A stretch of DNA of 62,102 nt, filler included, from Asterionella formosa (Eukaryota): the NCBI GenBank assembly GCA_002256025.1. It is 17 parts of 17 records of this genome, joined end to end, with 100 filler letters (N's around TTAATTAATTAA, not from the genome) between each part and the next. Parts side by side here need not be neighbours in the genome. Positions count along the whole stretch, not along the records: positions 47,615 to 51,162 come from NKIB01014060.1; 16 more parts are not named here. The stretch is one strand, 5' to 3'. Positions 20,267-59,774 of the stretch are shown one piece after another (positions within the stretch are counted from its first letter, which is position 1; each line of letters opens with the position of its first letter). The position numbers and the translations under genes are program-made. Below the pieces are notes generated by a model. That model worked only from the letters and a program-made list of their open reading frames with translations. It was not told where the DNA came from and did no database searches.

Positions 20267-20496
20267 TCCTGGTGAGCGTTGTTAGACTTCGTGCTAACAT
20301 AATCAGGTCCCGTTAGGGGCCTCACGCAAGTGAGGCATTTGATGGGGTCCCACACACCTCCACAGTCCAACGCCCCGATGGATAGGGCAGACCGCGTACT
20401 GGTCAAGACTGGGGCTGCCCACAGGTTTTTAGTGAGTGAAAGTCTCACACTAACTCGCCCAGGTGGAGGGGCGGGGTGCCTTGCTGGACACCAGGA
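20267..20496 (+). ncRNA. Structured RNA-like dispersed repeat, homologous to 50640-50878
   Basis: Shared blocks with compensatory changes, GNRA loops and a closing helix tcctggtg/caccagga. Confidence 0.55.
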
Positions 20497-20759: not shown

Positions 20760-20872
20760 AGATTTAGTTGAACAACCTCGAGATAAATAGTTGAACAACC
20801 TTCAGATTAATTCTTGAATGACCTTCAGATAAATAGTTGAACGAACTTCTGATGATTAGTTGAATGAACTTC
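20760..20872. repeat. Minisatellite, about 5 x 23 bp (agataaatagttgaacaaccttc)
   Basis: Units start at about 20760, 20781, 20804, 20827 and 20850, with no spacers. Confidence 0.8.
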
Positions 20873-21018
20873 TTCGGAAAAAATGAGGCTTAGATGTGCA
20901 ACCAGACTATGATGACTAATACAAAGGGGAATGGTCTAGCTTACCTCATGAGGTGGCGGGTTCCTGCATTCTCCATCTGTCGTCCTTTTATGTTGTCCCT
21001 GGGTTCTGGTGTGTGAGG

Positions 21019-45094: not shown

Positions 45095-45260
45095 CCTTCA
45101 GCAGATGTTGTATACACGTAGCAACAGTCTCAACCTAAGTAGACTGCTGGTAGTCCATTCGAGATTACAGTATAACATTGAAACGTTTGTTTGATCTTTG
45201 TCTCTTCACGAGATCTTTACAATTAGATCCTTGTCGTTGTTTTCCGGTGGTTCTTCTGTC

Positions 45261-47514
45261 ATGCATAACTATGGAGGCTTGATGCGCTTCAACCGCACCG
45301 GTCGTCTCTACGGTCGAAGCAGAGAAGTGAGTATCCTATTGGATGCTTTTACACGTGTCAGGATTGGTGCAACTGAAGCGGTCCTTGTTTCAGGCGAAGC
45401 AGGCGCTGGAAAGAGCAATGTCGCCGAATCCCTTCGAGGCCCTGTGACTTCGATCGAATTTTCTGGTTACTTCATCGCTGGAAAGTATGACCAGCTTAGG
45501 CTAAACGAACCCTTTAGTGCGATTGTGAACGCGTTCAATGACTTAGCTGAAATCATAAGTCTCACAGAAGGTTCTCATTCACGAAGAAGCAGCATTAAGG
45601 AAGCTCTTGGGGATGAGGCTTGTTTGCTCTGCAAATTGATCCCGAATATTTCAAATTTGCTTGGACAAAAGAAAAATCCAGAGGAGGAAGTGGGGGGTAA
45701 CATGATGGACATTGTTTCCAAATTGACTCTGGCCTTTCGAAGATTTGTAGGCGTTGTTGCCACAAAAGAGAGCCCATTGTGTATATTCCTTGACGACATT
45801 CAATGGGCAGATCAAGCATCCATACAAGTGATACGAGGCCTTATTACGGACATTAGGAGCAAACATGTTCTTTTAGTATTGGCCTATCGAGATAATGATC
45901 TGAACGCTGCAAAAGTTGACGAGTTCTTTCAATGTTCCGAGAATGAAAAAATGGTGCATTTGACCAAGATATCAATTGGTAATCTTGATGTCGAGTCAAT
46001 TCATGACTTGATTTGCGATCAATTGAAAATGTCAACTTCTGATGAATCTATGAAATTGAGCGAATGCACATGGAAGAAGACTTCAGGAAATCCTTTCTTT
46101 GTACTTGAATTTCTGGATGAGTTACTTGGCAGGGGATTCATCGTTCGAACCGATTCATCGTGGTTGATGGATTTAGAGAAAATTCAAACCGAGACCAATG
46201 TGTCTGTCAATGTTGTCAATACGATCTCTAAACAGATGAAACGGCTACATCCCCATATAAGAGCTGTTTTAACATATGCCGCACATCTTGGCTTTCAGTT
46301 TCGACGCGATGTACTGGAAGCCATTGTGATCTCTGAACACGTATCGTCCAGTTTGAAGTTGATTCCATTGCACATAGAAATTGCAGAGATCAAGGGCCAA
46401 TTTACACAAGATCAATACCATGACAGAGTTTCCAGAATCCTGGATGCTGCAACTGCCGAAGGTATTATCGAAAAGTGTGATGATTCTGGAATCAAAATGA
46501 AGTTTGTGCATGACTACCCTCAGACTGTTCTTTATAATTCCATTCCCGAAGGAAGGGAACGGGCAATGATACAATTGACAATTGGTATTTATATAAGAGA
46601 GATGCTGCTACCAAAATGTAACGATTTTCTATTTCCTGTTGTGCACCATCTAAATCATGCATCGCCATACTTGGTTGAGGAAGGTGATCGTGTTGGCTTA
46701 TCACGACTCAACCTTGATGCAGCAAAGTTAGCAATAAGCGAGAAATCTGCGTTTTTGAGTGCCTCCGAGTATTTGCGATATGGTATCGATCTTCTTGATG
46801 CAGACACCATGTGGAGCAAGCATTACGAACTTTGTCTGAGACTGTTTAGCCTTTCTGCAGAGATCGGTTATCGTATTGGAGACTTTGCATATAGCGATAA
46901 AATGGCAAAAAGCATCATGGTAAATGCACGAACCATCGAAGATAAAGCATCTGCCTACTATTCGGAGATCGATGCACTGAATGCGCAAGCCATGCACACG
47001 CAGTCAATTGACAAATGTCTTTCAATTCTACAGGAATTGGGAGTGAAAGTGACAAGACATCCAACTACATTTGCCCTTCTTTGCTCATTTGCAAAGACGA
47101 AGAAATTGCTTCATAAGAAATCAGATGATTTCATTCTTTCATTGCCCCTTCTTGAAGAAAATGCGCAAGCTATTATGATCATGACCATTCTCATCAAAAT
47201 TTGCTCTGCAACCTATTTCCTTGGAGAAATGAACCTGGGGACATTTGCTATTTTACGCGTCGTTCAATTGTCCCTAAAGTATGGTATTTCATCAATGTCA
47301 CTTCCTGCATTTGCTGCTTATGGTAGATTGGAATCAACGCTGGGAAATTCAGAAAGTGCATATCGGTTTGGCATGCTTGCACTCAAACTACTGGACAAAC
47401 AAAGTTGTCAGAAGAAGCACATCTGTATAACTATGGTGTATTCATGGACTTTCAATTTACATGGGAAAAGATCATTAACCGAAGTTGCCGACGCATTCAA
47501 ACAAGCCCAAGTTG
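45261..47514 (+). CDS. AAA/STAND-type predicted ATPase (COG3899-like) with helical-repeat C-terminus, 3'-truncated
   Basis: LYGR, Walker A GEAGAGKS, Walker B IFLDDIQWAD, TSGNPFF and FVHD motifs. The true start is uncertain. Confidence 0.85.
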
Positions 47515-47614
47515 NNNNNNNNNNNNNNNNNNNNNNNNNNNNNNNNNNNNNNNNNNNNTTAATTAATTAANNNNNNNNNNNNNNNNNNNNNNNNNNNNNN
47601 NNNNNNNNNNNNNN

Positions 47615-49076
47615 AGGCCCGGCTGATTCTAGGAGGTCACATGATCGATGCCTCAGGACACGATACATACACGACCAACATGAAAGGAATCAGTGCCAGA
47701 ATCCTCATGCTTATTGCAAGTGCAAACGAACTCAGGGTATTAACAGGGGATATAGGGAATGCGTATTTGTATGCCAGCACAAATGAAAAAAAATTCTGCA
47801 GGCTAGGAGAAGAGTTCAGCATAGCAGGGCATGGGGCAACTGGAAGGATTGCAGTGCTTGAAAAGGCACTGTATGGCACCAAGAGCGCTGCAAACCGATG
47901 GCATGCACATCTAGCAGACACCCTACGATGTATGGGTTTTGCAACAAGCAGATATGATGCAGAAATTTGGTACCAAGCACGTAGTGATGGCTCTGGCTAT
48001 GATTACATCGGGACAAATACTGATGACCTGATGATAGTGGCAAAGAACCCGGAAGGGTACTTTGAGGTGCTACAGGAGAAGTATACGATAAAGAAGATTG
48101 GCCCATCTACATTTCACCTGGGATGTGATTACGTAAGGGGACCAGATGGTAAATGGAGCATAGGAACAGAAACCTACGTCAAGGAAACCCTGGAGAGAGT
48201 GAAAACCATGCTAGGCCGGAAGGACCTTGGCAAGGATGATGCACATATCTCACCAACATTCCATCCAGAGCTAGACAATTCACAACTACTAGATGTCGAC
48301 CAACACAGGTTGTACCAACAACTAGTTGGAATAGCCCAGTGGTTGATAACATGTGGTAGGCTTGATTTTTGCTATGCCATTTCGTCTTTAAGTCGATTCA
48401 GCTCTGCACCGCGGATAAAACATCTAAATGCACTGGAGCGAGTATTCAAGTATATCAACAAGAATAGAGCACTGGCATTAAGATAAATCCGGAAAATTAT
48501 GTCTTACCAAAGCATGACATCATGTACGAGAGCGCAGATTGGACTGAGCAGTACCCGGGAGCAATCGAAGAAATGGATGAGAAGTTCCCTACTCCACTAG
48601 GGAAGGAACTTAGCACAACCTTATACTTTGATTCAGACCACGCCCATGATCAGAAAACGAGAAGCTCTATTACTGGGATGATTGCCTTCATAGGATCTAC
48701 CCCAGTAACATGGGCATCGAAGCGTCAAGGGGCAATAGCAACTAGCACTTACACTGCAGAGCTATGTGCGGGTAGAACGGCTGCTGAGGAAGCCATCAGC
48801 ATTAGATACATGCTGAGATCTTTAGGGGTGCCCGTGACGACACGAACGCTATTATTGGGAGACAACCTAGGCTCGCTCCAAAGTACCTCGAATCCTGGGT
48901 CTGAATGCCATAAGAAACATAGTATGGTTAATTACCACTGTGTGCGAGAGTGTTGTGCATCTGGAATCATCCAACTCGCAAAGGTAGACACTAAGTTGAA
49001 TCTTAGCGATGGCTTTACCAAAGCTATCGAGAAGTCTATCTACCTTGATCATAGAAGATGCCATTTTGCAGCGTGA
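47615..49076 (+). mobile_element. Ty1/Copia RT-RNase H, frameshifted near 48486
   Basis: GDIGNAYL, LEKALYG, TNTDDL, YFDSDHA, WASKRQGAIATSTYTAE and NLSDGFTK motifs. Confidence 0.92.
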
Positions 49077-49544: not shown

Positions 49545-50068
49545 CAAAGATGGAACAGAGCTGTGTACAGTCGGGTTTTTGGGAAAGAACATTGCTACTT
49601 TGGAGAAAACAAAATTTCAATATTAAGACAAGTTTGCTCCAATCATTGAGCTGTATGATGAAAGTGACAATCAAACAAAGAAGATTAGGAGCAACCACAA
49701 CCTTGGCTGGAGTGGCTTCATTTCGACTTTTTGATGACATCCAAAATCATGAGTAATGGATTGTTCTAAATGGTGCTTCTTTGAAAAAGGTTCAAAAATC
49801 TTGATTGAACAAGGATAGATTCAATACAAATTAACTAGTAGCTGAACATTATAAGACTTTAAACTGGTCATTGATTTAATTTCTATTTGTCAACAAAATA
49901 AATAATATATTTTCCATTTGCAAGTCAGACATGTAGTTTGAAAACGATATATTAAACAAATAAAAGATTTAATCACTAAATATTATCCAAATATACTACA
50001 ACTAAAGTAGACCAGCTTTGTATCCAATACTGGCTCAGGTCTTTGTGATCAACGACACAGTTACCTTG

Positions 50069-50172
50069 GCCCCTCACGGGATGGAAACTTGGCCGTAGTT
50101 GAGGGGCCCTCTCCCTTGATGTGTTGGCGGAATCTGCGTATTTCGTCCACACAAGGTGACCAATGTCCATCC
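50069..50172 (+). ncRNA. Candidate HDV-like self-cleaving ribozyme (variant)
   Basis: P1, P2, P3, L3, P1.1, P4 and J4/2 (CCAA) occur in the canonical order at the 5' junction of the insertion. Confidence 0.55.
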
Positions 50173-50983
50173 ACGAGCTGATAGGAGGCCGCTTTTCGCT
50201 TATAGGCGATTTAACGCTTATGTCCTGGGCCGCCCTCTTCTAAATAAAAGAGGGTACATTATCCAAGGCTTCTCTGGTCATTTCCAAAGAAGATATATTA
50301 GGGTGAAGCGTACATGGGGACCCAAAAATCTTGTCCCACGGTTACTAGGTAGGGGCTCTGGGACTCCCAGAGTCCCTGTCCCACCATCCTCTTGTCACTA
50401 GAGAGGAAAATTGTGAGGGTAGAAAAGAATGCTAAGTCCCTGGGGTGTCGGGACATGATGCCTTAATCTTGGGTAAGAGGTTGCATTTATGGGGTCCCTC
50501 ACTGTGCAGGGTGGTTAGACCAAAAAACCACCAGCCACAAGAGCAAATGGAACTGTTCCGCGGAGGGAGCAGCCCATTTGTTGGGTAGTTAGGTATGGGA
50601 CAGACGCAACTATGAATGACAGCCTAGCAGGCATAAGCCCCTGTTGGGCGTCAGTTCAGTGCTGTAAGACTTTGTGCTTACAGAAATGGGTCCCAGATAG
50701 GGGGGCTCCGCTCTGCTCCTCTCCTGGGGTCCCACACACCTCCACGGGCCAACGCACCAATGTGTAGGGCAGACCGAGTACTGGTCAAGACTGGGGAGTC
50801 ACAAGGTTTTTTAGTGAGTGCAAGTCTCACACTGCTTCGCCACCGTGGTGGGCGGCGGGGCGCCTCACCGGGCACAGGTTTGACAAACCTGTGGATGAAG
50901 TAGGAATTCTTTCTCAACACGCTATGACGTGAAGAGACCGGATAGGTTTTTTCCCTTGTCCCTGTGAACAGCCAAAAAAAAAA
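50073..50983 (+). mobile_element. Non-autonomous poly(A) retroposon (about 0.9 kb) with a 15-bp TSD
   Basis: cagttaccttggccc at 50058-50072 and 50986-51000, and A10 at 50974-50983. Removing the insert restores the pogo frame. Confidence 0.85.
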
Positions 50984-51523
50984 CCCAGTTACCTTGGCCC
51001 ATGGAGCCTCCACCCATTGCGCAACATTATCCCTTATAACTTTTTTATTTTCTATGTTTTGAATCATAAAATTCTCCCATGCAGCCTGCACATAGCCTTT
51101 GAATGGCTTGTTGACGCCCACATCCAGTACTTGAGCGAAGCTGGGATGTGTAGCCAGGGGTTNNNNNNNNNNNNNNNNNNNNNNNNNNNNNNNNNNNNNN
51201 NNNNNNTTAATTAATTAANNNNNNNNNNNNNNNNNNNNNNNNNNNNNNNNNNNNNNNNNNNNCTTCATACATAAATATACAGATATGTTGATCAGACCGA
51301 TCGAAATTCTGACGTGGTCACCTCGACAGAATTCTTCTTCCCGATTTTCCTCGGAACTAAATATTGCATGGTTTATAACACTTTATAATTTTAGTTTGTG
51401 TTTTCTCCTTCTTTGATCGTCGCTTCAAACTCTTTGTATTCCTCGTGAGCCTCTTCAATCGTTAGCGTGTTTGTTGAGATCGGAACAAATTGCTGATAAA
51501 TTTTCAAATGATGTGATACCCAA

Positions 51524-51789
51524 TGTTGAAATTGCGTCCCGAAGCACTCTATGCTTTCTTGTATCCTGTAAGGAAACGTCAGGGACCAAATAGGCTGTAG
51601 ATATGAACAACGATGTATCCGTAATCGATTGTAATCATTCCTAAGAGTTTTAATAGAATTGTGGGTTTTACTGTTGGCGTAGATTGTTTTCGAATTCTCT
51701 GGTACCATATTCTTTCTTGATTCATTCGATTCAATATGTAGTAGGTAATTCATACCAGGATTTTCTTTCCTAAATTAATTTCTCCAACA
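51524..51789 (-). mobile_element. Solo LTR (266 bp) with 5-bp TSD cccaa
   Basis: TG...CA ends, cccaa at 51519-51523 and 51790-51794, and high similarity to the LTR at 59508-59774. Confidence 0.92.
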
Positions 51790-59507: not shown

Positions 59508-59774
59508 TGTTGGAGAAAATATTTTAGGAAAGAAAATCCCGGTATGAATTACCTATTACATATGGAATCGAATGAATCAAGAAAGAATATGGTACCAGAG
59601 AATTCGAAAACAATCTACGTCAACAGTAAAAACCCATAATTCTTTTAAAACTCTTAGGAACAATTACAATCAATCACGGAGACATCGTTGTTCATATCTA
59701 CAGCCTATTTGGTCCCTGACGTGTCCTTACAGGATACAAGAAAGCATAGAGTGCTTCGGGACGCAATTTCAACA
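59508..59774 (+). repeat. 5' LTR of a Copia element
   Basis: TGTTG...CAACA ends. Boundaries are defined by the solo copy at 51524-51789. Confidence 0.92.

Follow-up and report, generated by a model that had tools for sequence, protein, structure and literature searches.

A short retroposon and its parent LINE in Asterionella formosa

Here, we describe a short retroposon located on the plus strand of a 62,102-nt stretch of DNA from the diatom Asterionella formosa, further called the window. The element is enclosed by two copies of a TSD and is built of three pieces: a 105-nt module at the 5' end, a body derived from the 5' UTR of a LINE, and a tail derived from the LINE 3' UTR. The positions of these pieces, and of the helices into which the 5' module is predicted to fold, are collected in Table 1.

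Table 1. Positions of the retroposon, of its predicted ribozyme helices and of a related LINE fragment in the window
Feature	Position	Strand	Basis or remark
HDV-like ribozyme module, 105 nt	50070..50174	+	fold, shuffle statistics, same block in other contexts
P1, 5' strand, CCCCUCA	50070..50076	+	+1 base C50070 pairs with G50106
P1, 3' strand (50100-06), followed directly by C50107/C50108, the 3' side of the reversed P1.1	50100..50108	+	
P2, 5' strand, GGAUGGA	50079..50085	+	J1/2 is C50077 G50078, 2 nt
P2, 3' strand, UCCAUCC	50166..50172	+	
P3 (ACU/AGU, 3 bp) around L3	50087..50099	+	50087-89 with 50097-99
P4, long interrupted hairpin, 19 pairs, hexaloop 50134-39	50112..50159	+	minimum-energy fold
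J4/2, CCAAUG	50160..50165	+	C50160 candidate catalytic cytosine, C50161 alternative
5' TSD copy, cagttaccttggccc	50058..50072	+	last 3 bases (50070-72) common with element start
3' TSD copy, cagttaccttggccc	50986..51000	+	15-base repeat
Body from parent LINE 5' UTR	50175..50753	+	alignment to L002
Tail from LINE 3' UTR, ends in A10 (50974-83)	50726..50983	+	alignment to L001/L005
3' UTR piece of a LINE of this family, 5'-truncated and lacking the ribozyme module	20343..20479	+	repeat and LINE alignment

The parent LINE was recognized in metagenome contigs. Window positions 50076-50753 align with the start of the LINE copy in contig L002 (reverse strand, 22-704) at 97.4% identity over 684 columns, and that copy continues into an ORF. 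At the other end of the element, the 3' UTR following the LINE ORF in L001 and L005 is matched at 83-84% identity by positions 50726-50878 and 50932-50983. The two alignments overlap at 50726-53, a short repeat present in both UTRs, which is likely the deletion joint. Judged from these alignments, the element in the window derives from the LINE by internal deletion and is non-autonomous. The possibility of a tRNA-derived SINE head was also considered and rejected, as no tRNA was found in 49900-51100.

Taken together, the contigs cover both ends of the LINE. The module is followed by the 5' UTR and an ORF with an Exo_endo_phos match in L002 and L004, while the end of the ORF, the 3' UTR and the poly(A) are present in L001 and L005. 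Several database proteins, with lengths of about 1455-1479 aa, represent the full intact ORF; those of 1475 aa carry both APE and RVT_1 domains, and their nearest solved structure is human L1 ORF2p (E 1.3e-25). Besides APE and RT, the LINE protein has a C-terminal Cys/His motif, and its diverged relatives show 39-75% identity over the C-terminal 394 aa of the query. RTE-like LINEs have been reported in another species, T. pseudonana (PMC2806351).

Several further features were noted in the window and in the LINE copies. The truncated fragment at 20343-20479 is an 81% direct repeat of 50725-50861 and is 82% identical to the LINE; just downstream of it, at 20768-20882, a unit of 23 nt occurs four to five times in tandem. 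The LINE 5' UTR in L001 (reverse strand, ~1533-1680) contains two tandem units of ~75 nt (accggaaacgtggttaaac...). The left flank of the retroposon (49950-50072) is itself repeated, since several contigs are 84-90% alike to it, and some of them pass 50072 without the retroposon, i.e., they are empty sites. On the right side, at 51164-51263, two runs of N flank ttaattaattaa, which has stops in all frames and looks like an assembly linker; therefore, the sequence to the right of the retroposon 3' flank may not be contiguous. Further on, there are two inverted repeats of ~270 nt (51524-51789 and 59508-59774), which are 94-95% complementary and separated by 7.7-8 kb; the ORFs between them match glycosyltransferase, TPR and MatE. 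The Atlas clusters nearest to the MatE gene are mostly from Bacillariophyta, in agreement with a diatom host. To the left, 45195-49076 contains an ORF of 791 aa, with an AAA_16 ATPase domain, which continues into ORFs matching a Copia-type reverse transcriptase (RVT_2); this is probably a degraded LTR element adjoining, or fused to, an ATPase gene.

The 5' module pairs as a nested double pseudoknot

The 105-nt module has the element order P1-P2-P3-L3-P3'-P1'-P1.1'-P4-J4/2-P2', i.e., that of a nested double pseudoknot, and all five helices pair. P1 and P2 consist of seven Watson-Crick pairs each, P1' abuts P3', and P1, P2, P3 and P1.1 are formed by Watson-Crick pairs throughout. The loop L3 is UGGCCGU (50090-96, 7 nt), in which U50090, C50094 and G50095 occupy the conserved U, C and G positions (1, 5 and 6) of the published descriptor, numbered there U19, C23 and G24 (PMC6326823). 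P1.1 is formed by G50091-C50108 and G50092-C50107, so that the pairing is retained and its orientation is opposite to that in HDV. The closing helix of P4 is 50114-18 with 50152-56, and the minimum-energy fold lengthens P4 outward to U50112-A50159. The candidate catalytic C50160 is then placed directly 3' of the last P4 pair, and the U and G of J4/2 are two further bases before P2. The predicted cleavage site is immediately 5' of C50070.

An earlier note on this DNA had proposed an HDV-like fold with these helices, and every pair it assigned to P1, P2, P3, L3, P1.1 and P4 is present, including the swapped P1.1. P1 can indeed be extended to 9 pairs, as it had suggested, if G50068 and G50069 of the flank pair with C50107 and C50108. 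Two details required revision. The note gave J4/2 as CCAA with a candidate catalytic C; the C is there, and as P4 reaches 50159 the junction is refined to CCAAUG. It also described P2 as bulged. The 7-bp core of P2 holds, while the bulged extension (C50077-G50175, G50078-C50174) is absent from other copies: L003b/L004 have an A at 50174, and the downstream sequence of L001 is different. We therefore regard P2 as the 7-bp core.

Thermodynamic estimates were in line with this arrangement. When the uninterrupted stems of the 105 nt were ranked in an unbiased listing, P1 came first (-16.6 kcal/mol) and P2 second (-15.8 kcal/mol). Each of the nested halves is stable on its own, with -28.5 kcal/mol for P1+P3+P4 and -27.4 kcal/mol for P2+P3+P4. 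There are also competing pairings, namely 50098-106 with 50112-120 (-13.7 kcal/mol) and GGCC 50091-94 with GGCC 50105-08, and in the window copy the lengthening of P1 by G50068/G50069 can compete with P1.1. For L1Tc and R2, extension of P1 at the expense of P1.1 is described to lower cleavage (PMC3185411), and a G at position -1 is given as the poorest neighbour for HDV (PMC3185411, PMC8495972). At the bottom of P2, pairing rules suggest that A50086 could pair with U50164, leaving G50165 bulged and J4/2 only 4 nt long; a similar switch in this part of P2 has been described in the antigenomic ribozyme (PMC2175327).

The fold is not expected by chance

The chance frequency of such a fold was assessed with our own descriptor, which was composed after the candidate was known and is broad enough to include it. 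It requires 7 bp in P1, at least 6 in P2 and 3 in P3, a loop L3 of 7-8 nt, Watson-Crick pairing in P1.1 irrespective of the bases, and a C close to P2. With Watson-Crick pairs only and P2 of at least 7 bp, a search of both strands of the window gave a single site, the 50070 module. Among 60 dinucleotide-shuffled windows, again with Watson-Crick pairs only, there were no sites with P2 of at least 7 bp and two with P2 of at least 6 bp. When G-U pairs were allowed, there were two sites in the window (both strands, candidate included) against ~3 per shuffled window.

We also shuffled the module itself 20,000 times, preserving dinucleotides. The relaxed fold appeared anywhere in 24 of these sequences; in none did it start at base 1, have the U...CG letters of L3, or consist of Watson-Crick pairs only. 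Several features on which the descriptor did not select also fit the candidate, namely the letters of L3, the C-C-A-A of the junction, the fold beginning at base 1, and the ends of the module, including the 3' boundary after P2. The observation made in the earlier note is thereby confirmed as real and far beyond chance.

The module departs from the published descriptor of HDV-like ribozymes at the cut site and in P1.1

Rfam models do not recognize the module. There were no matches at gathering scores in the whole window, and searches of 501 nt and 126 nt at E<=10 returned no HDV-type family, only chance-level hits to a CRISPR repeat, mir-939, MEG8 and HCV SL588. With respect to the published descriptor, as given in PMC6326823, the module retains the lengths of P1 (7 bp), P3 (3 bp) and L3 (7 nt), the letters U/C/G at positions 1/5/6 of this loop, the 2-bp P1.1 as a pairing, and the C which starts J4/2. 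It breaks the descriptor at three places: the G1-Y pair is replaced by C-G, the C(L3)-G pairs of P1.1 by G(L3)-C, and the purine at position 2 of J4/2 by C. Thus, the expectation that standard descriptors would miss this module was correct, because Rfam gave no match and the module satisfies the published descriptor neither in G1-Y nor in the orientation of P1.1 (PMC6326823). The unusual +1 base, which had been listed among the caveats, is real as well, with C50070-G50106 in the place of the usual G-U wobble.

J1/2 is of 2 nt, as in canonical HDV/CPEB3-type ribozymes. J4/2 is C-C-A-A-U-G, two bases longer than the 4-nt junction of HDV; it differs from the canonical C-R-R-A and agrees with a catalytic C followed by N-R-A. 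Its C-N-A-A pattern is similar to C76 U77 A78 A79 of the antigenomic ribozyme, as described in PMC2175327. In HDV, the G-U wobble at this site is regarded as essential in a review (PMC8495972). This wobble is nevertheless not universal in the HDV-like family, because L1Tc-type ribozymes, which are active, are reported to have the other orientation of the P1 GC pairs (PMC4035085); they are described to differ from HDV and R2 both in this orientation and in the P1.1 bases (PMC4035085, PMC3185411). An older descriptor was judged too restrictive in PMC4035085, and two fast ribozymes are reported to have U:A plus C:U or U:U in P1.1 (PMC13635239). Our literature search returned no natural ribozyme in which G,G of L3 pairs with C,C following P1. 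The family itself is known; what is new here is the reversed core pairing, the C-G pair at the cut site and the diatom host.

HDV-like ribozymes have been described at the 5' ends of R2 and L1Tc/NARTc (PMC3774820, PMC3185411, PMC3383444). The closest parallel is L1TcRz/Pr77 of Trypanosoma cruzi, which likewise occupies the first bases of an APE-type LINE, L1Tc, and of its non-autonomous partner, NARTc (PMC3185411, PMC3383444). According to PMC3383444, NARTc and L1Tc have only the 5' block and the 3' end in common, which is comparable to the window derivative. L1TcRz is reported to cut 5' of +1 and to travel with each copy (PMC3185411), as predicted here, and its P1 is also described to begin with C-G pairs and its P1.1 to be unlike that of HDV (PMC4035085). 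Compared by description, the two differ in that the diatom block is of 105 nt and has a long P4, whereas the L1Tc block is of 77 nt. Moreover, P1.1 has two G-C pairs with the Gs in L3, compared to the one (or 1-2) pair described for L1TcRz, and the host is a diatom instead of Trypanosoma cruzi.

The second parallel is provided by Drosophila R2 SIDEs, which, as described in PMC3414825, are short and non-autonomous and combine an HDV-like ribozyme at the 5' side with the 3' end of a LINE. Microhomology at the 5' junction and template jumps at the RNA 5' end are reported for R2 (PMC3414825, PMC3774820), and microhomology is also found here. However, R2 is described as site-specific in 28S rDNA, with a restriction-like endonuclease and with P1 often formed with 28S sequence, while the element studied here is dispersed, ends in poly(A) and is flanked by a TSD of 12-15 bp, the endonuclease of its parent being of the APE type. 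The active-site letters of R2, as published, resemble those of HDV with C in L3, in contrast to the G,G present in L3 of the diatom module.

Independent copies start at C50070 and share a block that ends after P2

Other copies were drawn from public sequencing runs (the runs which contain the stretch are freshwater and lake samples and one organism) and from metagenome contigs. Contigs of four runs were aligned on 49950-50450, with a difference listed only when above 5% of depth. The metagenome pattern search fixed 50143-65 and could thus find close copies only; it gave five loci (L001-L005), all near-identical. Pattern scans of viral contigs and of genome contigs gave no further copies, and a scan of viral contigs with a protein profile of the LINE alignment, with 14 pattern matches, gave no relative.

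We found five junctions with unrelated letters upstream, and in all of them the match starts at 50070. In one run contig (X3, record 16) 30 other letters are followed by 50070-50174 without a difference. In a contig of the RNA run (X15, record 10) 29 other letters precede 50070-50450, also without a difference. A joint in an X5 contig passes from 50123 through 32 other letters to 50070, and L002 and L003 provide two further junctions, with other flanks, which start at CCCC. None of the five junctions carries an added G. The look-alike flank contigs devoid of the insertion run to 50072 and continue with letters similar to the 3' flank in the window; therefore, the target ended in ccc. As the copies start at 50070 while the empty sites reach 50072, positions 50070-72 represent junction microhomology with the TSD, a phenomenon described at 5' junctions of R2 (PMC3774820). 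Read from the copies in this manner, the first base of the element is C50070, which is the first base of P1. The fold is therefore located at the 5' junction of the retroposon, as had been proposed, and for the ribozyme the caveat that its first bases overlap the TSD is settled, since copies with unrelated upstream sequence start at C50070.

The 3' limit of the module was established in a similar manner. In X5, X3 and X1 contigs the match ends at 50174 and a different sequence follows. The shared block thus stops just after P2. At least three sequences occur downstream of it: the window and L002 have gagctgatagg..., L003b/L004 have gagctgata and then another sequence, and L001/L005 have accggaaacg... 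For R2/R1 hybrid SIDEs, only the ribozyme plus 5-8 nt is described as common (PMC3414825), to which a block ending at 50174 can be compared. Several junctions carry LINE-internal sequence ahead of base +1, which may be the trace of a template jump from the end of an RNA; the R2 reverse transcriptase is described to make such jumps (PMC3414825).

Some rearranged copies were also recorded. On the reverse strand of L003 (1-170) a full module comes immediately after one that is cut at the equivalent of 50168. The contig is of low coverage and has, in its remaining part, ORFs with a bacterial-looking signal peptide; hence, it may be chimeric. Some X5 contigs have 23-25 A's right before 50121 or before 50175, and there is a class of copies which begin at 50175, directly after the ribozyme block. 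In L001/L005 a copy truncated near 50121 directly follows the poly(A) of another LINE copy, thus a head-to-tail arrangement of copies does occur. The ~75-nt units of the 5' UTR are of interest in X3 contigs, where the ribozyme block lies within such a unit, between two copies of tcaccga.

Sequence variation and RNA data

Among the copies, six sites of the module are variable (50124, 50134, 50136, 50137, 50173 and 50174), all of them unpaired in the model (hypergeometric p = 2e-4 for the 82 positions left free by the search pattern, although three sites share one loop, which lowers the weight of this value). All substitutions and indels seen in P4 of other copies fall within either the loop or the internal loop. 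Also unpaired are the 5 bases duplicated in J1/2 of L002 and the small insertions in the P4 loop of some copies. The number of distinct full module sequences was three. In six aligned rows (four full and two truncated) 37 of the 38 pairs were invariant and none showed changes on both sides; the copies are nearly identical, and because of this the conservation proves little. A lower divergence of the module than of the body, indicated by a Fisher test, was withdrawn, since differences of X5-25 within stretches of high depth fell below the listing threshold and the counts were incomplete.

Word depth in the RNA run was 762-810 over the element and 0-5 in the flank, values which stand for neither expression nor copy number. 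The sole RNA contig (X15) extends 29 letters upstream of 50070 and shows no cut end; contigs, however, cannot show ends.

A predicted self-cleaving ribozyme at the 5' end of the element and alternative explanations

The results support the interpretation of the module as an HDV-like fold with a reversed, yet pairing, P1.1 at the 5' junction of the retroposon, because independent copies start at the predicted cut site, the shared block ends after P2, and the same block heads an autonomous LINE. We consider it likely that the module is a working HDV-like ribozyme with reversed P1.1, predicted to set the 5' end of the element.

The following sequence of events could account for the data. The element or its parent LINE would be transcribed from an upstream promoter or within a longer RNA. 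The RNA would then fold as the nested double pseudoknot, with P1, P1.1 and P4 as one set of helices and P2 and P3 as the other. C50160 in J4/2 may act as the general acid, beside a putative metal site on the U50090/G50095 pair of L3, and the chain would be cut just 5' of C50070, giving an RNA with a 5'-OH which starts with the ribozyme. Such an RNA may be reverse-transcribed at the nicked target by the endonuclease and reverse transcriptase of the LINE, hence each full-length copy would begin at C50070 and carry the ribozyme along. The window copy, reduced to the ribozyme, a piece of the 5' UTR, the 3' UTR and poly(A), would have to borrow the LINE proteins.

Among the alternatives, C50070 might be the transcription start of an internal promoter, with the 105-nt block being a structured, non-catalytic element of the 5' UTR (a promoter, an IRES or a handle for the LINE protein). 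An internal promoter also yields a precise common 5' end, as noted in PMC3774820, and in L1Tc the same 77 nt are reported to be both promoter and ribozyme (PMC3383444). Exchange of the block as a unit is expected of any functional 5' cassette, the wobble at the cut site is missing, and the cleavage is a prediction. However, a promoter leaves unexplained the double pseudoknot with U..CG in L3, C-N-A-A in J4/2 and P1 starting at base 1, a combination found in none of the 20,000 shuffles. Reverse transcription of a cap can add an extra G, and a cap-derived G is absent at all five junctions. We thus regard a non-catalytic promoter element as unlikely; the roles of promoter and ribozyme are, moreover, compatible with each other.

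The module might also descend from HDV-like ribozymes and have a reversed core which is catalytically dead or very slow, the family spreading by other means and the fold persisting since the copies are young. All the copies seen are nearly identical, so selection is not evident; neither the C-G pair at C50070 nor the reversed P1.1 belongs to the descriptor core as given in PMC6326823; and inactive R2 ribozymes with intact folds exist, e.g., in the sow bug, as reported in PMC3774820. On the other hand, five independent junctions at the predicted cut site indicate that an RNA end was made there during the spread, and the LINE ORF has stayed intact in database proteins. The reversed orientation of P1 GC pairs is also compatible with activity in L1Tc-type ribozymes, according to PMC3185411 and PMC4035085. 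Given these data, an inactive core seems quite improbable to us. A chance look-alike within a GC-rich 5' UTR is very improbable, as the post hoc descriptor, its ~3 sites per shuffled window with G-U allowed and the lack of two-sided changes in the 38 pairs are set against the absence of the Watson-Crick fold from 60 window shuffles (P2 of at least 7 bp) and 20,000 module shuffles, against P1 and P2 being the two best stems, and against the fit of the unselected core letters, base-1 start and 3' boundary after P2.

Returning to a working ribozyme, a broader proposal may be put forward, though only tentatively and as one which we hold to be rather doubtful. The module could represent a flipped-core subclass of HDV-like ribozymes, in which L3 purines pair with pyrimidines after P1 and a C-G pair stands at the cut site, and which would extend from diatom LINEs to bacterial and archaeal viruses. 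In the present lineage, the 105-nt ribozyme would also act as a mobile 5' cassette, passed from one LINE 5' UTR to a different one through template jumps which start at the cut RNA end.

Implications for the ribozyme family and for the diatom

If this is true, the flipped-core subclass would be invisible to standard descriptors and to Rfam, and both the range of the family and the tolerance of its active site would be wider than catalogued. Searches fix the G-U at the cut site and C(L3)-G in P1.1, thus a working and spreading exception would prove these rules too narrow. The module would also provide a clean test of the tolerance of the metal site and of the P1.1 stack to reversal. Our literature search found no paper joining an HDV-like ribozyme with a diatom, and the module, if active, would be the first HDV-like ribozyme that we found reported for a diatom. 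It would also explain the exact 5' ends of an abundant LINE and of its short derivative in this organism.
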